In this document: piece after piece, positions 12,100 through 63,838 of the stretch
How positions within the stretch are numbered: position 1 is the stretch's first letter
Layout of the letters: every line of letters starts with the position of its first letter
IMG/VR virus record: IMGVR_UViG_3300028840_006907
Span: 1-64,000 of that record
DNA: 64,000 bases
From: a virus
Reading direction: 5' to 3' (one strand)
The notes under the pieces: generated by a model
What the model was told of the DNA's origin: nothing
Databases searched by the model: none
The model's input: only the letters and a program-made list of their open reading frames with translations
Made by a program: the position numbers and the translations under genes

Positions 12100-12354
12100 T
12101 TATTCCTCTTGAAATTCTTTATAATCTTTAACAACTTCACTCCAAGGTTTGTGCTCAGTTCCTCGACAGAAAGCAACAAAGCCTTCCAGGAAGTAACGAC
12201 CACCTAAGAAAAGGACATATAAAGTTACAAGAAAGAAAGCCAACCGCATAATTTTTTGTGGCACTCTTTTATATCCTTTTTTCTTCTGCTTCTTAGGTCT
12301 TTTTAATTGGACCTTTTTATTAAATTGTATCTCATTAAGAAATTCGTTGCTCAT
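12100..12354 (-). CDS. small membrane protein
   Basis: Helix LAFFLVTLYVLFLGG; 2-nt gap to FtsK-like gene. Confidence 0.45.
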   Translation of the reverse strand: MSNEFLNEIQFNKKVQLKRPKKQKKKGYKRVPQKIMRLAFFLVTLYVLFLGGRYFLEGFVAFCRGTEHKPWSEVVKDYKEFQEE

Positions 12355-17330: not shown

Positions 17331-17497
17331 AAAAGTAACTCCTTTAATTTTAATGTGTATGATCCATATTACTTAACCTCAATATTTCGAGGACATTACA
17401 AAATCTTAATAAATTATACCCAGAAAATTTCAAATAAACAAGATTAAAGTTTTAGCATTTACTTGTGAGAAAGTTATTGGTAGGTACTCCTAAATGT

Positions 17498-23279: not shown

Positions 23280-23499
23280 TTATTGTACCTTCTAAAGAAA
23301 TATGTGAATTGAATCCTTTAGAGAAATATTGTGCTGGGTTAAATTTAAAAATTGCTATTCCTCCTATTGCCACAAGAAAAATAAAGAGAATGATTCTCCC
23401 GATCTTTCTTGGCAATTCTTTTCTTCGACGTTTAGCCATAAAATCTTTTTCATTTATTTTCATTATTATCCTCATTATTATCCTCATTATTATCCTCAT
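23269..23499 (-). CDS. small membrane protein with N-terminal (MRII)n repeat
   Basis: 12-nt tandem repeat encodes MRIIMRIIMRIIM; then basic stretch and TM helix; start set to first ATG. Confidence 0.35.
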   Translation of the reverse strand: MRIIMRIIMRIIMKINEKDFMAKRRRKELPRKIGRIILFIFLVAIGGIAIFKFNPAQYFSKGFNSHISLEGTINEK

Positions 23500-23508
23500 T
23501 ATTATTAA
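23461..23508. repeat. 12-bp tandem repeat, about 4 copies
   Basis: cattattatcct x3 plus one degenerate copy. Confidence 0.9.
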
Positions 23509-34544: not shown

Positions 34545-34901
34545 TTACATTTCCTCCTCTATATATCTCCTTGCTTCATCTTCACTCTTAAAATAAAAAG
34601 TCGTTATATCCTTCAATTTTTTAATACGCCACTTCTTATCCTTATGATGAAATATCCTACCCTCTGAATCAACGATATAATAATAAGTCGAAGCAGCTCT
34701 ACCAAATCCATCAGGTAAATATTGATTACTAACTATCCAATAATCACCTACTCTCGGATACTTATCCAAATAGCCCAACCTCTCATAACAACTTTCACAT
34801 AATAACTCTTCAGAAGTAGCATCCTCCGGGACATCCGGGATACTAATCCCACAAACAATACATTTTATCTGATTTTCATATGCCATAATTATTTCTTCCA
34901 A
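34545..34901 (-). CDS. hypothetical Cys-containing protein
   Basis: CIVCG...CESC motifs; 118 aa. Confidence 0.5.
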   Translation of the reverse strand: MEEIIMAYENQIKCIVCGISIPDVPEDATSEELLCESCYERLGYLDKYPRVGDYWIVSNQYLPDGFGRAASTYYYIVDSEGRIFHHKDKKWRIKKLKDITTFYFKSEDEARRYIEEEM

Positions 34902-35238: not shown

Positions 35239-35740
35239 TATATATACCCAATTACCTTTTTTATCCAGTAATATAACATTTTAATACTATCAAATACCAA
35301 CGTCCTATATGGTGCGTCCGTATTAATCTCTATTAAATCAGTCGTCCTATATCTTTAAACTATGGTCTATATAGTAATAAACACGATCTATAAATCAAAT
35401 AACAATTTTAAGGTAATCCTCTTACTCATCAATATCCATATCTTTATAATAAAAAACCCACACATAGCACCTATAAAAATGTGGAACCCTTTAAGGCATT
35501 TCTTAAGTAACTATGTATGGGCACTGAAAGGGATTTATACAAATCCCATTATTATCTTAATATATTAACTTACTATATGTCTATACCTATAAACATATCC
35601 CCCTATATATTACTAATTAGTAATATGAATGTAATTATCCCTATCCCCTATATCTAATAACCTATAAACTATCCATTAAGTATATCTGTATCCTATCCAT
35701 ATAATAACTCTGTAAGAGAAAATTAATATGTATCAGTATG

Positions 35741-35890
35741 CCCATTACCTTGAATAGAATAATGAGTAAGTCAGTACCAGGAACTATACCATCATGAACT
35801 ATGAACTCGGAACTATGTCAGGGAAAACTTGAGTACTTACCCATTACCTTGAATAGAATAATGGGTAAGTCAATACCAGGAACTATGTCG
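35741..35890. repeat. about 48-bp direct repeat x2 (period 99 bp), each with internal inverted repeat
   Basis: cccattaccttgaatagaataatg(a/g)gtaagtca(g/a)taccaggaactat at 35741 and 35840. Confidence 0.85.
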
Positions 35891-36057
35891 GGAATTTCCA
35901 ACGAGTATTTTGAAAAAATTTATTCTCCCTGCAAAACCCGGAACCGATTTCCTAGTTCCTACAATCATATATTAATAATCTTTTGTTATCTGTATAAGTA
36001 AATTTACACAGGGTAATTGACTGATCAAAGTAAGTTAATGTCTTCCCAAACCGAGTC

Positions 36058-36141
36058 TTTGACTTGGGGAAATTGGTTGTTGACTGTAGAGAAGAATAAT
36101 TTCACTTGCTCATTTGGGTATTTGACTTGGGGAAACTGGTT
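36058..36141. repeat. 21-bp direct repeat x2 (period 63 bp)
   Basis: tttgacttggggaaa(t/c)tggtt at 36058 and 36121. Confidence 0.85.
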
Positions 36142-36511
36142 CCCGACTATCAAAAGTGGGGTTAAAAACGAGGGGGGTTACCCCTAAATTTGATATTTCC
36201 AGACTGGGAACTCAGACAGGGGCGATTCCAGACTGTTTCTGGCCAGACTGGGGGAAAGACCTAAGACGGTCTTAGTCCACTCATCCAAGACCATTGCCAT
36301 TTATCTGATCCGTAGCTCCAGACCTGGAATGACTTGGATAGAATTTTATATGTTACTGCCAGACAGAAAATGATCTTTGAGTCTCCACGTCCCAGGATTT
36401 CCTGGACACCGTGTAATCCACGGAACTCTAGGCTATCGGCTGATTTAATTTCGTTCTGAACTTCTATGGGAAGTTCATTCATGTTTATTTGATCTATACT
36501 TGTGATATGCA

Positions 36512-37512: not shown

Positions 37513-37691
37513 CCAAAGTTATATTTGCTACTCCAATTTTTATAAAGCAGTTTAATATTTAAGTGAGTATTTCGTTTGATAAATGTTTTTGCCTGTTTCA
37601 ATGCAGAGTTAAATGGTCGGTCTACAAAGAAAACTTTGGTTAATTTATTCTTGGAATCAGTATACTCAATTTTGTATTTCTGTTTATTCAT
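37497..37691 (-). CDS. hypothetical basic protein
   Basis: 64-aa ORF. Confidence 0.4.
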   Translation of the reverse strand: MNKQKYKIEYTDSKNKLTKVFFVDRPFNSALKQAKTFIKRNTHLNIKLLYKNWSSKYNFGWKQT

Positions 37692-38011
37692 TTTCTGATA
37701 TTATGTTGTTCTTTTTGATGAGTCACCCAGCTATCATAACCCAGACGGGTCTCCTCATTAGAGACAGCGAGTCTCCATTCTTTCATAGGAAAGTCGGGAT
37801 CTTCAGTTTCGAGTTTAGGATTTTGTTTGATGTAATCTGCTATGGATAATTCTTTTTCCAGTACACCTTCACACCCATCATTGGTAAGATTGACTTCGAC
37901 TATTTTATAACCATCTTCGTTTAATTGTTTATGTTTTATCATGATCTCTTTTAAGGATGAAGATGTGAAAGTAACTCTTTTAATGATTAAATCTTGGTTT
38001 TGGATCTTCAT
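37688..38011 (-). CDS. hypothetical protein
   Basis: 107-aa ORF. Confidence 0.45.
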   Translation of the reverse strand: MKIQNQDLIIKRVTFTSSSLKEIMIKHKQLNEDGYKIVEVNLTNDGCEGVLEKELSIADYIKQNPKLETEDPDFPMKEWRLAVSNEETRLGYDSWVTHQKEQHNIRK

Positions 38012-50908: not shown

Positions 50909-51517
50909 TTAGTTATAGCGAGTTATTCCGTCACTGGATTCAAAATCCATTGCGAGTATGGTATATAATTCCGTTTCCTGTGTATTAATTGTGTCTGGAT
51001 TGACTTGTCTGGAATATCCATCACTGCTTTCAAAATCCATTGCGAGTGAAGCAAATTCATTTGATATGGTTACAAGCGAGTTAACTGGTTGAATTTCAAC
51101 GATTTCAGTCTGGGTTTGGACTTCTTTAATACATTCATCCATTAAACTATTTAGAGTATCTAAGTCGGTAGTTTTTACGAAGGTTTCCCAGTCCTCTTTG
51201 GACATATTAAAATATTCTCGTACGACTTCGAGTTTATCTATATCTGTTATAGTTTTTACTTTGTTCCCGTTTTGCCAAATACTTTTAGCTTTATTAGTAT
51301 ATATAATCTCGCCTGTAAAGTTATGGTTGAAATTTAACCAGCGAGTCTCGTTATTTACTGACGGGTCAATGACTTCAGCGAGTTTATTACCAAAACGGTT
51401 TATACGATAACGGCCAGTACATTGAACGTTTATCCATTCACGAATTGTTTTTCTTGCGGTTTGGTTTGTGCCATTAATAACAGCACCAATTAATTTATCG
51501 TTCATTAGTATAGACAT
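50909..51517 (-). CDS. hypothetical protein with duplicated C-terminal LAMDFESSDG motif
   Basis: First gene of the leftward array next to the control hub; about 35-nt DNA direct repeat inside its 3' end. Confidence 0.5.
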   Translation of the reverse strand: MSILMNDKLIGAVINGTNQTARKTIREWINVQCTGRYRINRFGNKLAEVIDPSVNNETRWLNFNHNFTGEIIYTNKAKSIWQNGNKVKTITDIDKLEVVREYFNMSKEDWETFVKTTDLDTLNSLMDECIKEVQTQTEIVEIQPVNSLVTISNEFASLAMDFESSDGYSRQVNPDTINTQETELYTILAMDFESSDGITRYN

Positions 51518-51572
51518 AATATTTCCCCTTGTCTAATGTATATATTAACAGTCAATTATTTTTTTCTGTTGT

Positions 51573-51940
51573 CATGAATAATGAAAAAAGTTTAGTAACT
51601 TTCCGAAGTTTTAAGAAACTTTTTCTTTGACGTTTGTTTTTTGTGGCTTTCATGAGTAATGAAAAAAGTTTAGTAACTTTCCGAAGTTTTAAAAATTTTT
51701 TCTTTCATGTAAACTTTTCCTTGTCTACATGAGTAATGAAAAAAGTTTAGTAACTTTCCGAAGTTTTAAAAATTTTTTCTTTCATGTAAACTTTTCCTTG
51801 TCTACATGAGTAATGAAATTAGTTTGGTAACTTTCCGAAGTTTTAAAAATTTTTTCTTTCATGTAAACTTTTCCTTGTCTACATGAGTAATGAAATTAGT
51901 TTGGTAACTTTCCGGAAAAAATTGTAAAAACGCTATTTTC
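51573..51940. repeat. 77-bp tandem direct repeats, about 4.4 copies
   Basis: Units begin at 51573 (degenerate), 51651, 51728, 51805, 51882 (partial). Confidence 0.95.
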
Positions 51941-52312
51941 CTTTATATAGGGGAGAGCCAGAAATCGCCCGTTTGATGTGCGTGATATATACGCCCGAAA
52001 ATGTTCCCGGTTCTAACCCCCCAGTGAAATACCCTTTCCACAAAAGTGAAATACCCCAATACAACTATACCATACCCGACCATACCCCACCCCCGGGACC
52101 TGTCTTCGGGATCATCATCATGCGCTTGCTTTTCGTGCGCTCAATGCCATACCCACCCCCTTTTTGTAAAGATTTTTGGAAGTTGGAAATGGATGGAGTT
52201 AGATTGGATTTTTTGGATGGTAGAAAATTTTGGCTGGTGGGAGAGACCCCACAGTAAAGTACCCGGTTGGTTCAGGGAAGTACCAATATGGTTCAGTGGA
52301 GTGTCTTTTTTG

Positions 52313-52370
52313 TGGCGCATATCCTGTTATAGTGGCGCATATTCTATTATAATGGCGCATATTTCAGTTC
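52313..52370. repeat. three direct GTGGCGCATAT boxes at about 20-bp spacing
   Basis: gtggcgcatatcctgttata / gtggcgcatattctattata / atggcgcatatttcagttca. Confidence 0.9.
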
Positions 52371-52397
52371 AAAGCTCTCAGAACCCAGTTCAAAGAA

Positions 52398-52628
52398 CAG
52401 GGAACAGGGAACTGAGCACAGGGAACTGAGCACAGGGAACCGAGCACAGGGAACCGAGCACAGGGAACTGAGCACAGGGAACTGAGCACAGGGAACTGAG
52501 CACAGGGAACCGAGCACAGGGAACCGAGCACAGGGAACTGAGCACAGGGAACCGAGCACAGGGAACTGAGAACAGGGAACCGAGCACAGGGAACTGAGAA
52601 CAGGGAACTGAGAACAGGGAACCGAGCA
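52398..52628. repeat. 14-bp tandem repeat array, 16 copies, GC-rich
   Basis: CAGGGAAC(T/C)GAGCA with T/C and C/A variants; partial copy then units from 52405. Confidence 0.95.
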
Positions 52629-52872
52629 CCTGTATCTGTGATCTCGGAAAAGTTTCGGGAAAAAAATCGGGAACGGCTCAGGGCTGAGAAATAGGTATGA
52701 ATTTTTTTGGGGTATAATTTTTGGAGTTAAACAGTTGGGGAAATTGGAGTTATCTTATGTGAGGTGATGGGATAGTTTATGGAGGGTGAAAATTTTTTGG
52801 TATAGTTTGATGGAGAAACAGGTATAATACTTATAGGACGGAAAAATTTAAGTCTAATGGTTCGAGGATCTT

Positions 52873-53064
52873 GTGAAGAAGAACACAAAGCGTAAATTAA
52901 ATAAATTGATAGCATTTTGCAAGGATGAGGGGATGGACATAAGTGCGGATGGTGGTTTAATTTATGTCACGGTAGGAAATGGTCGGATGAATGAGGAGGT
53001 TTGGTGTGAGAAGGCTATCAGTGGTTTTTCGGAGGTTGGTGATTTTGGTTTTAACGAGGATTAA
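52873..53064 (+). CDS. hypothetical protein, first gene of rightward array
   Basis: 63-aa ORF; GGTATAAT box about 40 nt upstream. Confidence 0.45.
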   Translation: MKKNTKRKLNKLIAFCKDEGMDISADGGLIYVTVGNGRMNEEVWCEKAISGFSEVGDFGFNED

Positions 53065-53095: not shown

Positions 53096-53815
53096 ATGAA
53101 CAATAAGATGTATTTAAACAGTTTTATAGATGCATTGAAGGTTTTATCAGTAGGGACTCTTGATAATTATAAGGAGGAGTTTACTGTGGGATTACCTTTG
53201 GACCCGGAGATATTTAAGGAGGTCATACGGAATGGAGTTATGGCTATTCGTGATGGGTCTCATTTTTTTCTTCGTGACATTAAGAAGGTTCGGATTAGGG
53301 ATATGCCGAATGAGTTGCATGAGATTCCAGATCTTTTCACGATATCTTATAAGGCTGATGTTTTTAATGATGAGTTAGTGAAGGAGGATGTTGAGGCTCA
53401 TACTTTGGTGGTTCGTAGATTATCAGATTTGGCATATTCTGTTGTATTGTGGGCATCTCAGGATTTGGAGGTATGGCAACCTATACCTATTTATAATGTT
53501 GTAAATTTTGATGCTGACTTTAATGTTGAAGATGGGGCGTTGCCTTATAGTTATTGGGCGCATGAGTGTTTTTTAAATGGTCAGGGTGATATGATGATTC
53601 GCCAATTACCGTTTGAGAAATTGAATGAAGATCAGGTTGAATATTTAAATCAAACTTATTTATTCCCGATTTTATTTGAGTTATTTCTTGGATTTTGGAA
53701 CAAGTATCCCAGGCTTAGCTTTAAGGATCAGGTTTTACGAAATCGGACGTTGGTACATGATGAGGAGGGTGATGTTTTTTCATTGGATTGGATAAAATAC
53801 AAGGAGATAGTATGA
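53096..53815 (+). CDS. hypothetical protein
   Basis: 239-aa ORF. Confidence 0.55.
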   Translation: MNNKMYLNSFIDALKVLSVGTLDNYKEEFTVGLPLDPEIFKEVIRNGVMAIRDGSHFFLRDIKKVRIRDMPNELHEIPDLFTISYKADVFNDELVKEDVEAHTLVVRRLSDLAYSVVLWASQDLEVWQPIPIYNVVNFDADFNVEDGALPYSYWAHECFLNGQGDMMIRQLPFEKLNEDQVEYLNQTYLFPILFELFLGFWNKYPRLSFKDQVLRNRTLVHDEEGDVFSLDWIKYKEIV

Positions 53816-54702
53816 AAAATTTACGTGAGATGAAAGATATCCCGGAGGTCATGTATCGGAAGTCGCGTGAAGCGATTTGGTATGACATGAGTCAAGGGGG
53901 GGAATTATTTAATCGGTGTTATGTTTGTGGTCATCATAAGGATGATATGGAGACGTGTACTCATTTTATAAGGGGTATTGAGAATGAGATAGATATTAAG
54001 GAAGTGGCGTCTTGGTTTAATCAACCACCTGAGGTCATAGAGGACCGCGTGATTAATAACACGTTTATTTTACCGTATAATGCAACAAAGGGAGTTGAAT
54101 ATTTACCGGTGAAATATCATGGTGAAAATATAGCGGTATTTCCGATTTGTGGTGGGTGTCAGGCACTTATGCGTATACCTTTTGCAACTGAAGCAGATGT
54201 AATCAAAATGAAGGAGATGAACATGGATAGAGCGATAATAATGACAGGTAAGGCGGTAGAAACTGGTGATATAAACGAGAAGAAGTGTTGTTATTTATGT
54301 GGAAGGCCGGAGGGATCTGACAGTCTTTCGGTTCCTTATAATAAGAGGACTGAGGAGACGTTATTAGCGAAAATTACCTTACGGATGGTGACCTTTAATA
54401 CATCTGAAGAGATGAATATAAAATTTAAGTATTTGGTATGCCCGGAGTGTGAGATTTTATTGGGGGTATCTCCTCGGATCTTTATGAGTCATGATGGTGG
54501 TCATTTAAATGAAGATCATGATCCGTTTGATCTTACTGAATTAAACAATGGGATTCAGGCGATTTTAAATGGCAATATTTCTCCGACATTACAGGCAAAG
54601 GTTTTGGAATACATAAAGGCAGCGGGTCCTGAGTTTTTCATTAATGAGATTTTAACTATTACCAGTAAGAAGAGGAAGAGGAAGAAGAAAAATGGCAAAT
54701 AA
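53788..54702 (+). CDS. Cys-rich protein with several CxxC pairs
   Basis: CYVCGHH, CGGCQ, CCYLCG, CPECE; true start possibly an internal Met near 53812. Confidence 0.5.
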   Translation: MDKIQGDSMKNLREMKDIPEVMYRKSREAIWYDMSQGGELFNRCYVCGHHKDDMETCTHFIRGIENEIDIKEVASWFNQPPEVIEDRVINNTFILPYNATKGVEYLPVKYHGENIAVFPICGGCQALMRIPFATEADVIKMKEMNMDRAIIMTGKAVETGDINEKKCCYLCGRPEGSDSLSVPYNKRTEETLLAKITLRMVTFNTSEEMNIKFKYLVCPECEILLGVSPRIFMSHDGGHLNEDHDPFDLTELNNGIQAILNGNISPTLQAKVLEYIKAAGPEFFINEILTITSKKRKRKKKNGK

Positions 54703-54919
54703 ATTACAATCGGAAGAGAACACGGTATCTTTTACAGATTGTATCAGGGTTGAAGTTCGTGGAGAGTTAGCGGGATCATTTATGGAGTATTGTTTAAAGA
54801 ATAAGATTTATTCGATGAGAGCTGGGATGTCTGGTCCTGGCATTCATATTGGATTTTATTTGTTGGAGCACCGGGCCAAGATAGAGTCATTTTTTGATGG
54901 AGTCATAGATGAAGAATGA
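54692..54919 (+). CDS. hypothetical protein
   Basis: 75-aa ORF. Confidence 0.45.
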   Translation: MANKLQSEENTVSFTDCIRVEVRGELAGSFMEYCLKNKIYSMRAGMSGPGIHIGFYLLEHRAKIESFFDGVIDEE

Positions 54920-55160
54920 GCGGACTCGTATACTTCTATTATATAAGCCTGAGCAGAAGCTTCTTAAGACGGTTTTGCGGACGATACATGAGATTCGGGA
55001 GGTTTACGGGTATTATTATGTGGGCTGGTTTGTTTATGATCGTTTTGATCATTTTTGTTTTCGTTCAAAGAATGCGACTACGTGGATTGAGCTTTATGGC
55101 TGGAGTCCTTTGATCGTGGCTTGGAAGCGATACAACTTTAACAAGCGGAGGTACTTATGA
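54909..55160 (+). CDS. hypothetical protein
   Basis: 83-aa ORF. Confidence 0.45.
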   Translation: MKNERTRILLLYKPEQKLLKTVLRTIHEIREVYGYYYVGWFVYDRFDHFCFRSKNATTWIELYGWSPLIVAWKRYNFNKRRYL

Positions 55161-55354
55161 ACGCATCAACATCTATTAAATTGGATAAATTTTTAGAATA
55201 TTGTCGTGAGAATGGGATTCGGTTGAGTGCAGTTGGTCAGATTTTTCTCAATGTTGATGGTGATATCATTTTTACTCCCTATGGCAAGATCACCGAAGAG
55301 ACAGTGGTGGATGATTTTCAGAATGAGAAGTTTATTGGTAATTATACAATATAG
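55157..55354 (+). CDS. hypothetical protein
   Basis: 65-aa ORF, 4-nt overlap. Confidence 0.45.
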   Translation: MNASTSIKLDKFLEYCRENGIRLSAVGQIFLNVDGDIIFTPYGKITEETVVDDFQNEKFIGNYTI

Positions 55355-55363
55355 GAGATTTTT

Positions 55364-55780
55364 ATGGTACCCAATACATTCACAGACGAAGAAGTTGATA
55401 TAGCCCGAAAATATGTTTTATCTCAGATTAGGAGATATAGTCGGTTTAAGAACGGGAAGAAGTTAGGGAACCCGTTTGTCTTTTATAAGGACGTTTTGGC
55501 TCAGATAGGGTATTATATAGAATCTGAGCATGACGGGGATCGTGCTGGTATACTTGCTGCGCGTATTTCAGAGGCAGAATTTTCTGAGCATGGAGTGCTT
55601 ATAGGTGCGGTTATAGTGAGTCAGGAGTATCGTCGTCCTGGTCCTGGTTTTTATGTATTTGCCGAGGAGAATGGGTTATTTAATTGTCATGGTAATGCCG
55701 ATCCGGACGGGGCTCGGGAGTTGAATTTTTGGGATCAGCATGTTACTGAAATTGTAAGACATTATGGGAGGCAGAGATAA
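55364..55780 (+). CDS. hypothetical protein
   Basis: 138-aa ORF. Confidence 0.5.
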   Translation: MVPNTFTDEEVDIARKYVLSQIRRYSRFKNGKKLGNPFVFYKDVLAQIGYYIESEHDGDRAGILAARISEAEFSEHGVLIGAVIVSQEYRRPGPGFYVFAEENGLFNCHGNADPDGARELNFWDQHVTEIVRHYGRQR

Positions 55781-55933
55781 TGATACATTCTTATCAGGTT
55801 GGGGAGATATGTAATGATCCTTTATATGTGGACTATGCAATGAGAGGTGATATTGTTGAAGTCAGTCTTGATGAGGTAGAACTTGTACAAGCCTCTGATT
55901 CAGATGCTTTTTTATCAGAAGAGGATTTAATAA

Positions 55934-56359
55934 ATGAAAAGAGTTAAATGTCGTTCAGATAAAGTGACTGTTTTTCCTGTTACTGGAGGTCATTATCAAC
56001 AAAGGATTGAGGAAGTAACAATTGGAAATGTTTATGAAGTGATTAGGGTTGTTCGTGATGATTATTATGAAATCCTTCCTGATGAGGGATTCCAAACCAA
56101 AGTGCTTCCTGATTACATGTTTGAGTCAACCAATGAACCGGTTACCATTAACCCGGATCGGGAGAAGAATGAAAAGAAGAGACAGGAACGATTAGAGAAG
56201 GAGCGAAAGGAACGGGAAGCTCAGAGAATTCGCGAGGAGATTCAAGATAGAGCATTAGCATATTATAATCCGGTTGCATGGTATAAAAAACAGAAAGCGA
56301 AAAAGCGCTTATCAGATGCTCTTTCTCAGATTTTTACCTCTGGTTTACCTTATGGATAA
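55934..56359 (+). CDS. hypothetical protein with charged coiled-coil-like segment
   Basis: EKNEKKRQERLEKERKEREAQRIREE. Confidence 0.5.
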   Translation: MKRVKCRSDKVTVFPVTGGHYQQRIEEVTIGNVYEVIRVVRDDYYEILPDEGFQTKVLPDYMFESTNEPVTINPDREKNEKKRQERLEKERKEREAQRIREEIQDRALAYYNPVAWYKKQKAKKRLSDALSQIFTSGLPYG

Positions 56360-56370
56360 AGGAGATAAGC

Positions 56371-56694
56371 ATGGTTGAAAAATCATGGGAAGAAATAGAA
56401 GGAAGAGACTGGACTGCTATACAGATAAAAGATGCTCAAAAAAAGCATAATGATGGCATAATAGAAAACATAGTTATGAAATTTGATAAGCCAGAGACAG
56501 CGAATGGTTTCAATAGATGGTTACAATTTTGCGGGGAATTTAAAATAACTGTAGAAGACATTACTCCTGCAGATGTCCGTCTTGTATGGTATGGCCCGAA
56601 TTTGAATAACATCACATTTATGACTGAGAAGAATTCTCAAAAGTACATTAATGAAAAGACGAGATTGATTTTAATAAAGGATATTGAAAGATGA
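56371..56694 (+). CDS. hypothetical protein
   Basis: 107-aa ORF. Confidence 0.5.
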   Translation: MVEKSWEEIEGRDWTAIQIKDAQKKHNDGIIENIVMKFDKPETANGFNRWLQFCGEFKITVEDITPADVRLVWYGPNLNNITFMTEKNSQKYINEKTRLILIKDIER

Positions 56695-56939
56695 TCACAC
56701 GCATTGGATTGGATGCTGCGATCAGCATGATCGATAAGGATATCCCCGAGGCCCTGGAGCCTTACTGGGCTACTGTGAAGCAATTTATAGATGAGTTGCC
56801 AGAAGATACCTTAATCCAGTTGCTTCAATCTATTGCTAATCAGATAAATACTAGGGGTAATTGTCTGATAATTCAGCAGGAAGAAGATTTACGAGTAGTA
56901 AAAGATATTGATTTAGTATTATTTAAAGATTTAAAATAG
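56691..56939 (+). CDS. small protein, tandem paralog A
   Basis: Shares I.E.LE.YW.TV...DDLPE.TL..L..SIA core with next gene. Confidence 0.5.
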   Translation: MITRIGLDAAISMIDKDIPEALEPYWATVKQFIDELPEDTLIQLLQSIANQINTRGNCLIIQQEEDLRVVKDIDLVLFKDLK

Positions 56940-56949
56940 GAGCGGTAGT

Positions 56950-57195
56950 ATGAAAGTTAAACGTTCTGATTTAACAAAAGCTATACGTGAACTTGATGAA
57001 AAAATACCTAGTGAATTAGAATCTTATTGGAAAACAGTCAGATTAGCCCTAGATGATTTACCAGAAGAAACTTTATGTAATTTGTTTGGATCTATTGCCA
57101 GAGAACTGGGTTTAAAAAATCAATGTCTTCTGATTCGTAAAGGGGATGATATTGGTATAGTTACAAAATTTAAAGCGATAAGGATACCTGATTAA
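56950..57195 (+). CDS. small protein, tandem paralog B
   Basis: Same length and motif spacing as 56691-56939 product. Confidence 0.5.
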   Translation: MKVKRSDLTKAIRELDEKIPSELESYWKTVRLALDDLPEETLCNLFGSIARELGLKNQCLLIRKGDDIGIVTKFKAIRIPD

Positions 57196-57197
57196 TT

Positions 57198-57545
57198 ATG
57201 AGACAGATAAAATTGGCTTCAAATGATAATGATATTACAGCTAAATTAAAAATGACTATAAATTCTAAAATACACCAATTACATGTATTATTGAGTAAAA
57301 ATATAGAACTTGGTAATCTCTTGGAATTAAAAGATGAAGCCTCCGATAATGATTATATCGAATTCGGTGATATAATGTTGAGACAAAGGTTACTCTTGGC
57401 AGAAATAGATTCTTTAATGATTTCTTTAAAACAGATGATTATGATGATTTCAAAAAATAAAAGAGTACAAATAGAGTGGGATGAAATTTCAGAGGAAGAT
57501 TTAAAAGCTGTACGAGATAGTTATTTCCATAAAATAATGGAGTAA
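57198..57545 (+). CDS. hypothetical protein
   Basis: 115-aa ORF. Confidence 0.45.
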   Translation: MRQIKLASNDNDITAKLKMTINSKIHQLHVLLSKNIELGNLLELKDEASDNDYIEFGDIMLRQRLLLAEIDSLMISLKQMIMMISKNKRVQIEWDEISEEDLKAVRDSYFHKIME

Positions 57546-57547
57546 TA

Positions 57548-57829
57548 ATGAATCAAGAGTTTTCAGAGACACCAGTTTCCATTGAGATAGAATTTGATTT
57601 GGATAGATTCAAAATTGATCCGGAAAAAAGTGTGAGGTATACTTTTCATTTTAAAGGCAGTGATGAGTTAAATTCGATAGAAGAAGCTGATATAAAAAGT
57701 TTACATAGTCTATACGCATGTTCTAGTGCTGTTACTATTATGCTTAAAAAATGTATAGATTCTTATTATCATTATATGAATAAAGCTGGAGAAGAAATTA
57801 ACACAATAGTAGAAGAGGGAAAAAAGTGA
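57548..57829 (+). CDS. hypothetical protein
   Basis: 93-aa ORF. Confidence 0.45.
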   Translation: MNQEFSETPVSIEIEFDLDRFKIDPEKSVRYTFHFKGSDELNSIEEADIKSLHSLYACSSAVTIMLKKCIDSYYHYMNKAGEEINTIVEEGKK

Positions 57830-58215
57830 AACAATTAATCCTAAATGAAGGAGATGGTGTAACAACGGTAATTCTAAAAGCAATGATAAATTCATCAATG
57901 GCTGAACTGGATTATTATGAAAACACTGCTTCGAAGATGAATATAGAGAATTGGGATGTTACCGTAGATGTTGAGAGAATCCAAGTTAAAATTGATTCTT
58001 TGGTTAGAATGTTACAAGTACATTTAAAGAAGATCTATTTGACATGGGAAGAAATTGATACTAAAGATCTGGTTATAAAAGATTGGAAAGTATGGAGTTC
58101 AAAGAATAATAAAAATACTTGTTTTGGATCAAAACCAGGTTCCCAGGCTCAGGCAGAGAATGGTTGTGAAAATTGTTGGGATCAGAATGAATGCTTTTCT
58201 AATATAGAAAAATAA
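57826..58215 (+). CDS. hypothetical protein
   Basis: 129-aa ORF, 4-nt overlap. Confidence 0.5.
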   Translation: MKQLILNEGDGVTTVILKAMINSSMAELDYYENTASKMNIENWDVTVDVERIQVKIDSLVRMLQVHLKKIYLTWEEIDTKDLVIKDWKVWSSKNNKNTCFGSKPGSQAQAENGCENCWDQNECFSNIEK

Positions 58216-58389
58216 TATGATTTCAAGATGGAATGTGTTTTTTAACGTGATACTCATCCAGATAATTATGTTATTTGTTACTGAGGCAAAGGAAGGTTTA
58301 CATTTAGTTCGATATTTATCATTTGCCGTTATAGATGTGTTACTTCTCATCTACGCATTAATAGGTTATAGGAAATCAAAAGAAAAATA

Positions 58390-58833
58390 GTGAGGGAAAG
58401 AATGTCATTTTTAGAACCTGAAGATGTTGTTGATCAATTAAAGATTTATAAAAGAGATAGTAGTGATATAGTTCTTTTAAAAGCCATGATAAATAAAGAA
58501 GTGGCTAAATTATTTGTTTTAAATCAAACAAGTGAAGTTATTTTGGAAGATATTCTGAAAATGGATTCAGGATCTGTTCCTGTTTTTTCAATTGAAAAAG
58601 TCACTGAGATGGGACTTGATTATTGTATCTCGGTTGCAAAGATAATTTCTTTAATAAATTCTTTGATACAATCTGGTCATGATGTTCTGGAGTGGGAAGA
58701 AGTGAGTCTATATAAGATAGGTAAAATAGACGGTTTAAAAATATTGGAAAAATTAAGCAATAATATGGACAAATTAAATGAAGCAATGAAAAGTTTTAAG
58801 ATGGATGAGGATTCTTCCGAGGATATAAATTGA
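58390..58833 (+). CDS. hypothetical protein
   Basis: 147-aa ORF. Confidence 0.5.
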   Translation: MRERMSFLEPEDVVDQLKIYKRDSSDIVLLKAMINKEVAKLFVLNQTSEVILEDILKMDSGSVPVFSIEKVTEMGLDYCISVAKIISLINSLIQSGHDVLEWEEVSLYKIGKIDGLKILEKLSNNMDKLNEAMKSFKMDEDSSEDIN

Positions 58834-59198
58834 TGGATTTTTTATTCGAAAAATCAAGGAAAGTCCCTAAGCATAGATGCACGAAATGTTTTAAAGAGAT
58901 GGATCATCTGACAGGAGATGGTATACCTACTGTTGGAAGTCTTATTGCCTGTATAAATTGTGGCCATATTATGATGATTGGAGAATCTTTTAAAATGCTT
59001 GAGGTAGATATACCTCAATTAGCAAGAGAATCAGATATCAAAGATTATTGTAAAATATGTCTTGCTAGTAAAGTTCTTGCTAATGTATTTCACAAAAGAA
59101 ATGGATATTATGCTTCTACCATTTTTGAGGATATTGAAAAACATTGTCCAGGAGGTTGCCATTGGATTGAAGGTACTGGCCAAGGTTTGTATAATTGA
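58830..59198 (+). CDS. zinc-ribbon-like protein
   Basis: CTKCF...CINCGH and CKIC...CPGGCH. Confidence 0.5.
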   Translation: MMDFLFEKSRKVPKHRCTKCFKEMDHLTGDGIPTVGSLIACINCGHIMMIGESFKMLEVDIPQLARESDIKDYCKICLASKVLANVFHKRNGYYASTIFEDIEKHCPGGCHWIEGTGQGLYN

Positions 59199-59250
59199 TT
59201 TTTAGAAATAACTATTGAAGAAATAAAAGATATTTTAGAAAAATTATAAT

Positions 59251-59757
59251 ATGGATCAAATAATAACAGAAATAGCAGAAGTAGCCAAGCAGAATTTAAT
59301 TAAACATGGAAGTTTGGCTCCGGTAGTATTACCTCATAAAAATGGTGTGATTGTACCACAATTAGTAATGAATCTGAGATTTGAAAATGATGAACAGAAA
59401 TACAAAGCATTTGTAATGATTGGAATAACTGCTCAGAAATTTTTTAAAAATGGCTTTATTGACAGAATAGTTCTTGTAATAGAAGGTGCTATGAAAGCTT
59501 ATGATGAGCATACAAGCGAATTGGTAAAAAGAAATCCTGAGCTTTATGCCCCTTTAACATATCCAGAGAGTCAGCGCCAAGAAATCATAATTATTAATGA
59601 CTTTGATTTGATAAAAAAGACGGATTGTTTTTATAGTATAGAATTCAAGAAAAACGGGACTAGCTTTACATTTAAACAATTAGAAAAATATGGATCGATG
59701 CCAGGAGGCATGCGGGATAAATTTTACCTTGGATTAAATTATGAAAAAAATCTATAA
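59251..59757 (+). CDS. hypothetical protein
   Basis: 168-aa ORF. Confidence 0.5.
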   Translation: MDQIITEIAEVAKQNLIKHGSLAPVVLPHKNGVIVPQLVMNLRFENDEQKYKAFVMIGITAQKFFKNGFIDRIVLVIEGAMKAYDEHTSELVKRNPELYAPLTYPESQRQEIIIINDFDLIKKTDCFYSIEFKKNGTSFTFKQLEKYGSMPGGMRDKFYLGLNYEKNL

Positions 59758-60082
59758 ATATTTTATATCTTTTTTTGTTGTGTTATCAACAATATCTATC
59801 GTAATATTGTATATCATTGTTTTTAATTGCTTGAAACATGAAAGATATTATCCTTATAGTTATTTCCATTCCCTAAAACATTATCGTTATAAACCTTTTG
59901 ATTATAATAAATATTATGCCATAACATTTACAGGTTCTCTGGAAAATCAAGATAGTTGCTATGTTTTAAAGAATAACAATCTTATAAAAGCTCGTTTTTA
60001 TAATTCGCCACAATTAGATCTATTAAATATAAAAGACAGTTCAAAAGTAGAAGTAATTATACAAGGAGTAATGGAAGAATGA
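59741..60082 (+). CDS. membrane protein
   Basis: Helix FISFFVVLSTISIVILYIIVF. Confidence 0.45.
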   Translation: MKKIYKYFISFFVVLSTISIVILYIIVFNCLKHERYYPYSYFHSLKHYRYKPFDYNKYYAITFTGSLENQDSCYVLKNNNLIKARFYNSPQLDLLNIKDSSKVEVIIQGVMEE

Positions 60083-60351
60083 AAGACAAAGAATATAATT
60101 TAAATCTTAAAGCTGGGTTCAAAATAGGTAATAATAAAATATGTGGCAAAAGAACTAAATATAGATCTGAAGAAACAGCTCGTAAGGCACTTTTCATGAG
60201 ATTAGAGAGGAAAAAAAGTCAAAATTTTTTAGGATATTACCCATGTGTATTCTGTGGAGGATGGCATATCGGTTTGAAAATGTTTATGAAATCATTAATA
60301 AAATATGAGAAGATAGAACTTCCAAAAGAAAAAGTAGATATGTTGAGATAA
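60079..60351 (+). CDS. hypothetical basic protein
   Basis: 90-aa ORF, 4-nt overlap. Confidence 0.45.
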   Translation: MKDKEYNLNLKAGFKIGNNKICGKRTKYRSEETARKALFMRLERKKSQNFLGYYPCVFCGGWHIGLKMFMKSLIKYEKIELPKEKVDMLR

Positions 60352-60747
60352 AGTTTTTTAGAGGTATTTAATATGGCATTAGAAGTATTATCTATACCGG
60401 AAGAACAATTACTTGAAGTAGTTATGGTCATTCGTGCAGGCTTGCAAGTCGTTGATGTTTCACGTGAAACATCAGATTACTTAATAAATTGGTGTAAAGA
60501 AGAAGAGGAGTATCTAAATGGGTGATTTGAAAGGAAAAGTAGAATGCCCCGTTTGCGGAGAAGAAGTGGATTTAGATGATTCGGAAAAAGCAGTAGCCCA
60601 TATGTCAAAAAGATGAAGCTCATAAAAATCATTTGGATAGGGCTCGAATTAATCATCTGATGGAGATGTTTACTGGATCTGGAATTATAAGGAAGGTCTG
60701 AATAGTTATAAAAATTATTAATTTAGTTAAAAAGAAGGAGTAAAAAA

Positions 60748-61041
60748 GTGCAGACAGATAATTTATTCTGTGATTTAAGAGAAGATGATGAATACTTTCC
60801 TATTGGATGTAATACAAGTCCGATAGCTCTAATATGGATAGAGAAAGGGGAAATTCAAACAAAGTATATGCAAGGTTGGTGTAAAAGTCGTTCCCGAATG
60901 GTAGCTGAAAATATAAGAGAATTACGAGATAAAAAGATCCCTTTTAAAATTATAGGTACATGGAGTGGTGAGTATAGCTCGAATATGTTTAATCTTAATC
61001 CTGAGAGAATTGAAAAGCTTTTGGAACTTCATGGTAATTAA
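60748..61041 (+). CDS. hypothetical protein
   Basis: 97-aa ORF. Confidence 0.45.
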   Translation: MQTDNLFCDLREDDEYFPIGCNTSPIALIWIEKGEIQTKYMQGWCKSRSRMVAENIRELRDKKIPFKIIGTWSGEYSSNMFNLNPERIEKLLELHGN

Positions 61042-61045
61042 TACA

Positions 61046-61498
61046 ATGCTTGTTGAAGAAAAAATCATAGAGGTTTTGGATTTAGATGAATGTCATGTTC
61101 TTTTGGAGAATTTCAAGAGTGAGATTTTTTGCCATTATAATGTGCCAGAAGATTTCAGTACCAGAATTTTAGTAAATGTCCTTAAGAAGATCGGGTTTGA
61201 AAATCAAGTTAACCGTCTCGATGCTACTCTTGATATGTGTCATTTAGAATATTCTGAGGATGGGGATTTCTATAAGAAAATTGTAAAGCATGCAGTTTAT
61301 TTATTTCAATTGTTTATAATTTGGGATAGGCAAGAAGAATTATGTGAAATAGAAATACCTACCCAAAGCCTGATCGATGATCTGCCCGAATTACCGCTGG
61401 TGAAATTTAAAGAAGATGGAAATGCAGAATGTCAGATTGAGTTAATGGTTCAAGTTAGGGAATTTATGAGATCGATGGTAATTAAGGATTGGGTATAA
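61046..61498 (+). CDS. hypothetical protein
   Basis: Start moved to ATG just after upstream stop (MLVEEKIIEV). Confidence 0.45.
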   Translation: MLVEEKIIEVLDLDECHVLLENFKSEIFCHYNVPEDFSTRILVNVLKKIGFENQVNRLDATLDMCHLEYSEDGDFYKKIVKHAVYLFQLFIIWDRQEELCEIEIPTQSLIDDLPELPLVKFKEDGNAECQIELMVQVREFMRSMVIKDWV

Positions 61499-61510
61499 GG
61501 TTCCGTTTTT

Positions 61511-61732
61511 ATGGGTAGTTGTAGGTATAAATATGTTTTAGATCCAGATATTACCCAAATGAATATTTGGGATGATATAAAAAGGCGCATTGAGAGAGAA
61601 AAATTGGTACAGGCTTTAAAAAATGGTGATGATAAAACTATACAAAGATTGATGCCTGATAAAGACCTACAGGAAATGCTGAAACAATTTCATGATGCTT
61701 GGATAAGCAGATTCCCGGAAGATGACATCTGA
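61511..61732 (+). CDS. hypothetical protein
   Basis: 73-aa ORF. Confidence 0.45.
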   Translation: MGSCRYKYVLDPDITQMNIWDDIKRRIEREKLVQALKNGDDKTIQRLMPDKDLQEMLKQFHDAWISRFPEDDI

Positions 61733-62109
61733 TGGCGAGTAGATACGAAATATTATTAAGACAAGAGGATCCCTTTTATGGGAAATGCCCTAAGGGTGGG
61801 AACCATGAATGGGGAACTGATGGACAGCATTCAAATCAATATTGTAAGAAATGTTTTTTAAATAGACCAGAACCACCGAAACTTGAGGATAAATACATAA
61901 CTGAAAATAATAAGACTATAAGTTTATTTAGTGAAAAAAAGTGCTTTGATGGCCAGGATCATGTGTGGGGTATTGATGGTGCTCATTCAAATGTTTATTG
62001 TAAAAAATGCTTTATGAGTAAACCTGAAGATACCCCTGCAGATCCGTATGAAGATGAAGTTGATTTAAAGAAGAAAAAGGAGTTTGATATAACAGATTTG
62101 AATGGCTAA
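61732..62109 (+). CDS. protein with two tandem zinc-ribbon-like repeats
   Basis: CPKGGNHEWGTDGQHSNQYCKKCF and CFDGQDHVWGIDGAHSNVYCKKCF. Confidence 0.5.
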   Translation: MASRYEILLRQEDPFYGKCPKGGNHEWGTDGQHSNQYCKKCFLNRPEPPKLEDKYITENNKTISLFSEKKCFDGQDHVWGIDGAHSNVYCKKCFMSKPEDTPADPYEDEVDLKKKKEFDITDLNG

Positions 62110-62812
62110 TGGAGGGAAAGTGACTAAAGATAAAAATGTTTCAAAATATAAAATAACCGATCCAGAATTTTGGATTAATGAAAAAGGGGATCATCCGACT
62201 CCTAGAACGATGATAACTGTTAATCATGTACAAAGAGGTATTTGGAAACCTGCTGATAGTATTATCAGTGTAGAAAGTGTTTTAAAATATCTGAAAAGTT
62301 TAGCAGAAGTGAAAGATGAAATCCCTATGGAGGATGACGGATCTGATAGAATTTCTGTAGCATTGACATGTTCAAGAATGTTAAATTTTGAGAATAATTC
62401 CAAAGAAGAAGTTGAACCTTTTCTTAGATTAGATCTCCCAATAGTTTCAGTTAAAGCACCCTTGGCTCTTTTTGGAAACATTGAATATGAAGAACATAAA
62501 CTTTCTAAAATGATTATAGAAATGGCTCAGAAAGTTCATATCGATGTTGAAAAAAAATATGTGGAGATTGGGGGTTTAAAAGGGCTTTATGGTAACATGA
62601 ATTTGGTAGAATATACTCAAAATAATGAAAATGAATTATCAGAAGTTTTTTTTGGAAGATGGCTTGAATGTCAATCTATAATTTTTGAATTCAGTATTCT
62701 TAATTTTAATGATGATAATTTATTTACTATTCGAGGTCTTTGGTTAGTAGACCATTGGGATTTTATAGACGTTTTTACTTCTCCAATATTTAATATCATG
62801 ATAAAAGAGTAA
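62102..62812 (+). CDS. hypothetical protein
   Basis: 236-aa ORF. Confidence 0.5.
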   Translation: MANGGKVTKDKNVSKYKITDPEFWINEKGDHPTPRTMITVNHVQRGIWKPADSIISVESVLKYLKSLAEVKDEIPMEDDGSDRISVALTCSRMLNFENNSKEEVEPFLRLDLPIVSVKAPLALFGNIEYEEHKLSKMIIEMAQKVHIDVEKKYVEIGGLKGLYGNMNLVEYTQNNENELSEVFFGRWLECQSIIFEFSILNFNDDNLFTIRGLWLVDHWDFIDVFTSPIFNIMIKE

Positions 62813-62816
62813 TAGA

Positions 62817-63362
62817 ATGGTGAAAAAAGAAGAAGTAGTTAAGTTACTTGAAGAACGGGGCTATGGAAGATTTAATGAAGAGTCCTGGATATTGGGATTT
62901 GCAGAACTTCGATCAATATGTGAGATCCAAGCGCATCTAACTGAAACCAAATATGCTGGTACCGATGAATCCGATTCTTGGAGAATACAAATAATGTATG
63001 AATTTGAGAAGGGGATCTTCGTTATGAGCCAGCGCAATATAGTTGAAAACGGAGTCCTTTTACGTGATGAATTTATAGAATGGGATACCAATTTAAGGCT
63101 TTTTATCGAGAGGTTCAGAATACTATCTCCCAATCAATTAATATTTGTGGGACCTGAGAAGGAACCTATGATCCTAAATCCAGGAGAACATGTTAATGAT
63201 ATTCATCCAATAACCGGTTTATGCACTAAGTTAACTCCTCTTTATGGTAGTTGGTTGAAATTGTTAAGGAGTGATTTGGATGAACTGGAAGAATTAGTCA
63301 AATTGTTAAAAAAAGCTAAGATAGAATTAAAACCATTAGTAGAAGATCTTACCAATGAATAA
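62817..63362 (+). CDS. hypothetical protein
   Basis: 181-aa ORF. Confidence 0.5.
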   Translation: MVKKEEVVKLLEERGYGRFNEESWILGFAELRSICEIQAHLTETKYAGTDESDSWRIQIMYEFEKGIFVMSQRNIVENGVLLRDEFIEWDTNLRLFIERFRILSPNQLIFVGPEKEPMILNPGEHVNDIHPITGLCTKLTPLYGSWLKLLRSDLDELEELVKLLKKAKIELKPLVEDLTNE

Positions 63363-63372
63363 GGAGTATGTA

Positions 63373-63552
63373 TGGATGAAATGATTAGTTGCCCACGCTG
63401 TGATGGGGATCCTGGAGCAATTTTGGATGGTGGTCATCCATGTTTTATGTGTAATGGTACTGGAAAAGTCAGAGGTAAGGATTTTACTTTTCATCCTGAT
63501 TACAGAGAACCTGAAAGAGACAAAGAAGAATGATATTCAGATTTATACGTAA
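63373..63552 (+). CDS. small zinc-finger protein (below ORF-track cutoff)
   Basis: CPRCDG...CFMCNGTGKV (CxxCxGxG-like); AAGGAG upstream of ATG. Confidence 0.35.
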
Positions 63553-63838
63553 ATCGTTTTGGACGTTTATTATGATTATAGCCTTTCCAATTGATTACGT
63601 TGGATGGAATTTAATATATGGTGGCACATTTGGCTATAGACCATTAAAACAATGTGTCAAAGATGGATTAAAACAATTAGAAGAATATAAAAGAAAGATA
63701 GATAAATTTTGAAAGAATTTTGGTTAAAAGTACTAGCTGCTTTCATAGGTAATGCTATTGGTGCCCCTTTAGCAATTTTATTTATTTGGCTAATTATAAA
63801 ATTCACAAATTTATAATCATAGAGAAGGAACCCTTATA

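Follow-up and report, generated by a model that had tools for sequence, protein, structure and literature searches.

Organization of the intergenic hub

The DNA analyzed here (the window) is a stretch of 64,000 nucleotides, positions 1 to 64,000 of the IMG/VR virus record IMGVR_UViG_3300028840_006907; it has 33% GC and derives from an uncultured phage-like element of ~469.6 kb. Two outward-facing arrays of small, mostly unknown genes diverge within it, and the subject of this work is the region between their first genes at positions 51518-52872, referred to below as the hub. An earlier note made from the same sequence had described this region as a 1.35-kb non-coding gap between divergent arrays, and this description is exact: the limits coincide with the gap between two open reading frames (ORFs), 50909-51517 on the minus strand and 52873-53064 on the plus strand, and an independent gene call on identical DNA placed zero genes in it. 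The hub is, however, not the only long non-coding stretch, as that note had it; a second, apparently non-coding stretch of ~1 kb is located at 35239-36260, though inside the leftward array. The following features were found at the locus.

50909..51517, minus strand: first leftward gene, encoding a 202-aa protein; its family is hub-adjacent in six lineages
51518..51572, minus strand: leader and ribosome-binding site of the 202-aa gene (sequences compared by eye)
within 51518..51572, minus strand: degenerate gene-proximal repeat copy with the core TCATTATTCATGACAACAGAAAAAAATAATTGAC, common to relatives A, B, C, and D
51573..51914, no strand assigned: AT-rich tandem array of a 77-bp unit, x4.4, 26% GC (repeat detection)
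51919..51974, minus strand: single-copy bipartite element, with box1 (AAACGGGCGATTTCTGGC) at 51957-51974 and an N19 spacer at 51938-51956
51919-51937, minus strand: box2 of the bipartite element in its window form, AATAGCGTTTTTACAATTT, conserved across lineages
51984..51992, minus strand: GTATATAT box (GTATAT), a candidate -10 box for a leftward transcript
52010..52160, minus strand: C-rich tract, 39% C, G-rich on the leftward strand (composition)
52161..52251, plus strand: C-depleted (5% C), G/T-rich tract with TTTTTGG motifs; switch of strand composition
52252..52293, plus strand: 21-bp x2 direct repeat, CAGTAAAGTACCCGGTTGGTT / CAGGGAAGTACCAATATGGTT
52307..52366, plus strand: 20-bp x3 repeat with the core TGGCGCATAT, lineage-specific
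52404..52629, plus strand: head-to-tail array of the 14-bp unit ACAGGGAACYGAGC, x16.1, 59% GC, 4% T, lineage-specific
52690..52872, plus strand: C-depleted (4% C) tract 5' of the first rightward gene, with candidate rightward promoters
52873..53064, plus strand: first rightward gene, encoding a 63-aa protein, with a GTG start and the ribosome-binding site GAGGA (ORF call)

The hub is real, non-coding, and far from random. The earlier note named three repeat families, and all three are present where it placed them: (i) the 77-bp array (93% match, Tandem Repeats Finder score of 535), (ii) three copies of TGGCGCATAT that start at 52313, 52333, and 52353 with an exact 20-bp spacing, and (iii) the 14-bp array. 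Against shuffled sequence, the 14-mer core (16 copies observed, 0.11 expected) and the 77-mer core (4 observed, 0.28 expected) both exceed chance. The count of the 10-mer TGGCGCATAT with one mismatch allowed (4 versus 1.5 expected) is weak when taken alone; its three exact copies in a 20-bp register are non-random. All these repeat cores are confined to the hub within the 64 kb, where few other tandem repeats occur, and independent samples carry an identical 14-mer array. The families in the hub number not three but at least eight, since at least five smaller ones were found in addition: AGTGAAATACCC (two copies and one variant), CCATACCC (three copies), TTTTTGG (five copies), the 21-bp direct repeat (two copies), CAGTTCAAAG (two copies), and GGTATAAT-type boxes.

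Each 77-bp unit carries an inverted repeat with 10-bp arms (TCATGTAGAC-N8-GTTTACATGA), a TTCNGAA palindrome, and A and T tracts; the first, degenerate copy of this family is 60% identical. The C-rich tract contains two copies of GGGTATTTCACT at a 22-bp spacing, three copies of GGGTATGG, and a TGGTATAGT -10-like box at 52063-52072. Its C content (39% at 52010-52160, 17% window-wide) bears out the earlier description, and the tracts that flank it, 52161-52251 and 52690-52872, have a C content of only 4-5%. As a result, G-rich strands run outward on either side of ~52160, a sharp switch of composition in non-coding DNA. The rightmost tract, 52690-52872, includes GGTATAAT at 52711 and 52821, TGGTATAGT at ~52798, three TTTTTGG motifs, and the ribosome-binding site. 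The sole GCTGGTGG of the 64 kb, identical to the Chi octamer of Escherichia coli, is located at 52233-52240 inside the hub; we rejected it as a meaningful feature, as at least one copy occurred in 26 of 100 shuffles and chance suffices to explain it.

Conservation of the left half in related elements

The family of the 202-aa protein is small, with 10 matches in 1.8 billion representatives. Relatives that carry its homologs, with proteins 37-54% identical to those of the window, were assigned to lineages A (P0007; 43% identity to the 202-aa protein), B (P0006; 54%, or 47% by BLASTP), C (P0010; 39%), D (P0008; 39%), and E (P0012; 37%). In these five lineages and the window, the closer family members are always encoded by the first or second gene beside the equivalent region; the more distant members are not hub-adjacent. 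A DUF932 gene follows the family gene at a distance of 2-5 kb in the window and in lineages A, C, and D. Contigs of lineages A-D extend no farther than 0.1-1.2 kb upstream of the family gene. The contigs of lineage E (19-27 kb) cover a complete hub of ~1.8 kb, which is also located between divergent arrays.

Comparison of the window with lineages A, C, and E revealed a common order of elements toward the family gene: (i) short tandem repeats, (ii) the bipartite element, and (iii) an AT-rich array of long units. Parts of this left-half module are present in five further lineages. The short repeats are lineage-specific, namely two copies of GGGTATTTCACT in the window, eight copies of GGGTATTTAGTTAG in A, purine-rich DNA in C, and five to seven copies of a 22-24-bp unit in E; the C-rich tract of the window corresponds in position to the GGGTATTTAGTTAG repeats of A and to the G-rich DNA of C. 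The bipartite element occurs once in the 64 kb, is 56 bp long, and consists of AAACGGGCGATTTCTGGC (box1), a spacer of exactly 19 nt, and AATAGCKTTTTTACAATTT (box2), with invariant spacing in all four lineages. Lineages A, C, and E have the same box2, from which that of the window departs at a single base; for box1, the window, A, and C agree at every base, and E retains it in part. The GTATATAT box, 10-14 nt upstream of box1, is kept in the window and in lineages A and C; E does not retain it. Since exact blocks of 18-19 nt persist while the neighbor proteins are only ~40% identical, strong selection appears to act on a cis-acting site.

The long units measure 77, 78, 77, and 68-69 bp in the window, A, C, and E, respectively, and are present in 4.4, at least 2.7, 7.7, and 1-3 copies. 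They share the core motifs CATTAYNYATG and GAAAGAAAAAAT, as well as ACTTYCGGAAA in the window and E, and have diverged across lineages outside these motifs. Four strains of lineage E, 99-100% identical over the hub, differ solely by insertions or deletions of whole units, one of them a 24-bp unit and the remainder one to two 69-bp units. Therefore, the arrays expand and contract quickly while the core stays fixed. By sequence comparison, then, a conserved cis-module associated with the first leftward gene makes up the left half of the hub.

The earlier note had proposed that conservation of the repeats in related genomes be checked. The left-half module was retained, and the 14-mer and 20-mer arrays were not: none of the relatives has the 14-mer core or the TGGCGCATAT core, and this holds for the complete hub of lineage E as well, so that the right half of the hub is lineage-specific. 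Searches with individual boxes did not extend the family. A scan of IMG/VR for box2 gave five matches, all in unrelated contexts; a metagenome scan with the box1 19-mer returned only the same genome and seven chance matches in unrelated contexts; and a genome scan with a 17-mer, a pattern too short for that database, gave 82 matches, all of them attributable to chance and none with box2 nearby.

In lineage E, the genes on both sides of the hub (L108 4046-6483 and 14496-15342) are built from 18-bp repeats encoding hexapeptides. This repeat, CTGAGCATTTCCATAGAC, reaches up to 33 copies, and about six copies continue into the non-coding DNA that precedes the first gene.

Predicted divergent control region

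We tentatively interpret the hub as a divergent control region, with an invariant core surrounded by clusters of protein-binding sites that resemble operators or enhancers, a reading to which we assign slightly less than an even chance. According to this proposal, the two arrays of the ~470-kb phage-like element would be transcribed outward from the hub, which would act as their intergenic control region: (i) the left half (51518-52160) would be a cis-module read toward the first leftward gene, (ii) the bipartite element would be its invariant core, serving as a promoter/start region or as another site for conserved machinery, (iii) both repeat arrays would be double-stranded-DNA binding-site clusters for dimeric or oligomeric proteins, with an array sequence that co-evolves with each lineage and a copy number that drifts by slippage, and (iv) the right half (52161-52872) would provide the rightward array with -10-like boxes and with a long upstream or leader region that contains repeats. 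The anatomy of the hub, its conservation, the polymorphism of copy number, and a self-complementarity equal on both strands were observed directly; the start sites and the protein binding are predicted, and the control would probably be exerted early.

Several observations are consistent with this proposal. The -10-like boxes GGTATAAT/TGGTATAGT point outward on both sides of the hub. Four GGTATAAT/GGTATAGT boxes were identified, three rightward (52711, ~52799, and 52821) and one leftward (52064), and the GGTATAAT box recurs, oriented with the downstream gene, at 17413 and 20816 in intergenic gaps and at 35783 within the 35239-36260 stretch. In units 2 and 3 of the 20-bp repeat, TATAGT and TATAAT stand directly 5' of GGCGC; this arrangement recalls a -10 box with an adjoining GC-rich discriminator and may represent a promoter. 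We regard these promoter-like boxes as leads, not as proof. The leftward strand of the 77-bp array folds better than shuffled sequences (z-score of -4.9), with a 10-bp hairpin in each unit. The opposite strand folds equally well in the window, C, and E, and the array of lineage A folds no better than shuffles on either strand. Because both strands fold equally, the signal reflects inverted repeats in double-stranded DNA rather than a strand-specific RNA, and inverted repeats are the usual signature of sites for dimeric DNA-binding proteins. Searches of the hub for Rfam families (E up to 1) and for tRNAs gave no match.

The earlier note had combined three functions, those of a replication origin, a partition site, and a divergent early-promoter region. 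Divergent control is the part that gains from the outward boxes, the position of the hub, and the conserved module; for origin and partition, the analyses detailed below yielded no support.

Other results weigh against the interpretation of the hub as a control region. A scan with the sigma-70 consensus, which may not be that of the host, found one site versus 4.4 expected, and no canonically spaced sigma-70 -35/-10 pairs occur in either orientation at the bipartite element or in the long units. A DNA-binding protein for the hub was not identified; the adjacent 202-aa protein is a Sm-like barrel, and such barrels more often bind RNA or single-stranded DNA. In addition, a promoter is no better a match for a unique and extremely conserved element than an origin or a packaging site.

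Four other readings of individual elements were tried and rejected. A sigma-54 reading of box1-N19 fits lineage C only (TGGCAT-N5-TTGCT). A leader-peptide mini-ORF in the long units has no frame conserved among the units of lineage C, and the potential of the G-rich tracts to form a G-quadruplex is not retained in lineage E. The fourth, a loading array for an FtsK-like translocase (KOPS or clt type), finds support in no more than a single isolated 13-nt copy of the 14-mer. This exact copy, GGAACTGAGCACA, is located at 12154-12166 on the minus strand, ~200 bp downstream of the FtsK/SpoIIIE-like gene (12356-13540); with an estimated chance probability of ~0.02, it could mean that one protein recognizes both places.

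Possible replication origin

Among the alternatives to a control region, we first consider a replication origin, which appears unlikely. Two versions were weighed: an iteron-type origin, in which an initiator would bind the short repeats and the AT-rich array would melt, and a transcription-primed origin as in T4 and T7, in which a promoter would be followed by AT-rich DNA and an R-loop would be favored by the G-rich non-template strand. The layout superficially resembles that of a plasmid origin, with phased 20-22-bp repeats, an AT-rich tandem array, and a GC-rich block, and the unique conserved core adjoins lineage-specific short repeats. Iteron-like spacings of 20, 21, and 22 bp are present in the hub in 3, 2, and 2 copies, respectively; the 14-bp period of its largest array, on the other hand, is not helically phased.

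The composition switch at ~52160, with its outward G-rich strands, and a change of sign of the total GC skew at ~52 kb could also be taken for an origin signal. However, the flip of total skew is an effect of codon position 1, and the GC skew at third codon positions (GC3 skew) keeps its sign at the hub: on the plus strand it is ~+0.1 to +0.4 at 36-51.5 kb, where the genes are on the minus strand, and +0.3 to +0.7 rightward of the hub. Within the 64 kb, the sign of GC3 skew changes instead at ~35-36 kb, across the second non-coding region. Likewise, the skew of the family-gene array in the relatives is carried by codon position 1, with GC3 skew near 0.

Further expected components of an origin were not found. 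The DnaA box TTATCCACA with at most one mismatch does not occur in 51518-52872; the window has 29 such matches versus 26 expected, all outside the hub. By nearest-neighbor stability, the 77-bp array lies slightly below the average in stability and is not a low-stability segment (z-scores of +0.4 to +0.9); 12 other places in the window have z-scores above 2.4, and 51900-52650 is the most stable DNA of the window (z-scores of -4 to -5). The flanking ORFs have no match to initiator, Rep, helicase-loader, or primase families in Pfam and PHROGs. Thus, the skew, DnaA, stability, and flanking-gene results remove the computational support for an origin at the hub.

Judged by skew, the second non-coding stretch (35239-36260) would be a better origin candidate than the hub: GC3 skew flips across it from -0.76 at 34545-34901 to +0.24 at 37688-38011. 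This stretch contains repeats of its own, namely two copies of a 47-bp unit with a perfect 12-bp-stem hairpin (ACTTACCCATTA...TAATGGGTAAGT), two copies of TTTGACTTGGGGAAAYTGGTT, and three copies of CCAGACTGGG. Elsewhere in the window, a perfect 12-bp tandem repeat, TCATTATTATCC x3.8 at 23460-23505, yields three DnaA-box-like motifs, TTATCCTCA, at a 12-bp spacing, the only such cluster in the window.

Possible packaging site and other alternatives

A packaging or genome-end site (pac, cos, or a terminal-repeat boundary) is quite unlikely. It would cast the bipartite element as a terminase core flanked by repeated small-terminase sites, with the early genes near the end that is injected first. 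A unique conserved core with repeated boxes on both sides is indeed seen in the hub, and SPP1 pacL-pacC-pacR, P1 pac, and lambda cos are arranged in this way. Moreover, assemblies end here: the three inspected contigs of the source element all end within the 77-bp array, and the contigs of lineages A-D end in or beside the long-unit array. A tandem repeat that exceeds the assembler k-mer is by itself a sufficient explanation of such breaks, and lineage E, with its one to three units, assembles straight through the hub. The breaks in the source element are those expected of a circular or terminally redundant map of ~469.6 kb in which the 77-bp array is the sole repeat above the assembler k-mer. 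No terminase gene was individually located in the window, where one weak match to a PHROG terminase family was not assignable to a gene.

A new kind of cis-acting site has, in our view, only a small chance of being the explanation. In this case, the conserved triad of lineage-specific short repeats, the invariant 56-bp bipartite core, and a ~77-bp palindrome-bearing array of conserved unit length would form a nucleoprotein array that initiates replication or packaging, or would act as a decoy or sponge through the transcribed 14-mer array. Such a decoy could capture a host nucleic-acid-binding protein at the start of infection.

The right-half arrays (14-mer and 20-mer) might instead be functionless minisatellites, generated by slippage and tolerated in a non-coding gap, and to this we give a slim chance. 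These arrays are lineage-specific, and unit copy number shifts between near-identical strains of lineage E. Against slippage alone stand the scarcity of other tandem repeats in the 64 kb, the identity of the 14-mer array in independent samples, and the long-unit array, whose position, ~77-bp length, and core motifs are retained in lineages with ~40% identical proteins.

It is very doubtful that the hub repeats act as RNA. The 14-mer array would then be transcribed from the TATAAT-GGCGC box (52348) into an unstructured purine-rich RNA with 16 ACAGGGA motifs, a sponge for a CsrA- or Hfq-type protein or a repeat-bearing leader, and the 77-nt units would form a leftward leader, possibly bound by the adjacent Sm-like protein. 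The fold of that protein, the -10-like boxes upstream of both arrays, and the lack of a terminator between the arrays and the downstream genes are compatible with such transcripts, and the ACAGGGA of each 14-mer matches ACARGGA, the core of the CsrA consensus obtained by systematic evolution of ligands by exponential enrichment. The GGA motif, however, carries little information, the 14-mer is not conserved, no Rfam family matches, and the long-unit arrays fold equally on both strands, that of lineage A no better than shuffles.

Finally, a partition centromere, with the 14-bp x16 array in the role of parC or tubC or the palindromic 77-bp units in that of sopC, is highly improbable: head-to-tail short repeats, ~77-bp units with inverted repeats, and a tolerance of copy-number variation recall those sites, but the 124 ORFs of the window gave no match to a ParA, ParM, TubZ, or ParB family (a highly diverged actin-like protein might escape detection), a cutoff as loose as E of 5 brings no match for the 10 ORFs nearest to the hub, the relatives lack the 14-mer array, and nothing points to maintenance of the element as a plasmid.

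Flanking genes and the source element

The proteins of the flanking ORFs recur, identical, on contigs of 388,651, 469,021, 469,541, and 469,617 bp (JGI, ENA, Logan, and NCBI), which represent four independent assemblies of the source element. At the DNA level, no relatives were detected in GenBank phages, PLSDB plasmids, or IMG/VR, and the repeat cores, box1, and the flanking proteins had no match in IMG/VR. Only a few of the 124 ORFs in the window match known families, namely DNA methylase, FtsK/SpoIIIE-like, AAA ATPase, DUF932, DUF3150, GP88, PAPS-reductase-like, DprA-like, and deoxyribonucleotidase families. We use the label "phage-like element" because this set is typical of phages, yet the 64-kb window has no structural hallmark gene. 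A Borg or a jumbo archaeal element was considered as well and is countered by the strong Shine-Dalgarno sites of the window and by families of bacterial phage type.

In the 202-aa protein, the N-terminal ~135 residues form a Sm-like/SH3-like beta-barrel and a helical bundle. Its C-terminus is a disordered acidic tail with two copies of LAMDFESSDG, of which the closest homolog has one. The 63-aa product of the first rightward gene has a paralog of 65 aa encoded 2.3 kb downstream (55157-55354), with 27% identity and a shared KLxKxxxxCxxxG...SAxG pattern; no relatives of this pair outside the source genome were found among 5.8 billion proteins. Sequence searches of the PDB with three flanking proteins gave no match. 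On the right side of the hub, a homolog of a 239-aa protein was found in the relatives in a different context. The rightward array (53096-63700) has a strong bias of G over C in the coding strand, with gene GC skew of +0.2 to +0.44 and GC3 skew of up to +0.69, and the first 15 kb of the leftward array have the opposite third-position bias, C over G in the coding strand.

Implications

Elements of ~470 kb are known almost only from metagenomes, and we know of no cis-acting sites defined for them. The hub provides a concrete candidate for such a site, a single-copy 56-bp element that is near-invariant while the neighbor proteins fall to ~40% identity. New in this work is the left half of the hub, which, as far as the compared lineages tell, is a conserved module always read toward a small gene family of Sm-like fold. 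The source element belongs to an undescribed family of ~0.5-Mb phage-like elements, and the bipartite element together with the arrays can serve as a marker for recognizing further members of this family of very large elements. The hub is also a natural anchor to orient and close assemblies, which break there, and it offers defined pieces of DNA for binding, replication, and reporter assays. The skew analysis carries a caution: a clean flip of GC skew at a divergent gene switch, when it stems wholly from codon position 1, is not to be read as an origin.

Comparison with known systems

In its layout, the hub most resembles the homologous regions (hrs) of baculoviruses and repeat-flanked pac or ori sites, without agreeing with any of them in all the features tested. 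The likeness to oriT of RP4 and F consists of a location between divergent operons, a conserved unique core with accessory repeats, and an adjacent array with DUF932 and an orphan methylase; unlike at oriT, the 64 kb contain no relaxase or type IV secretion family, and the sole translocase-like gene, of the FtsK/SpoIIIE family, is located ~39 kb away. Tandem-repeat centromeres of plasmids, such as F sopC (43 bp x12), R1 parC (11 bp x10), and pBtoxis tubC (12 bp x7), are likewise made of short head-to-tail repeats or of longer units bearing inverted repeats, and their copy number is not critical. In the hub, by contrast, the 14-mer is not conserved, and the 64 kb contain no gene for a partition nucleoside triphosphatase or a centromere-binding protein.

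Early regions and origins of T7 (phi1.1A/B and A1-A3) and T4 (oriF and oriG) have, like the hub, promoter-like boxes with AT-rich DNA behind them at the start of an operon that looks early. The promoters of the hub, in distinction, are putative, its AT-rich array has an unremarkable duplex stability, and searches revealed no relationship to those phages. The iteron origins RK2 oriV, P1 oriR, and F oriS are similar in their intergenic position, phased 20-22-bp repeats, AT-rich segment, and GC-rich block, and differ in that the hub lacks an adjacent rep gene, DnaA boxes, an unwinding element of low stability, and a GC3 flip; the head-to-tail 14-bp x16 array is not iteron-like. Compared with SPP1 pac, P1 pac, and lambda cosB/cosN, the repeats of the hub are much longer (69-78 bp) and more numerous, and nothing points to genome termini; the common feature is a unique core flanked by repeated motifs.

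The hrs of baculoviruses are non-coding regions beside early genes, with two to eight ~70-bp tandem units, each bearing an imperfect palindrome, in strain-variable numbers. They belong to eukaryotic viruses, are dispersed over several loci, and are bound by IE1, unlike the hub, which is a single locus in the 64 kb and has no sequence relationship to them. The analogy is one of layout only, and in layout the two have in common palindromic long units in a variable number of copies.

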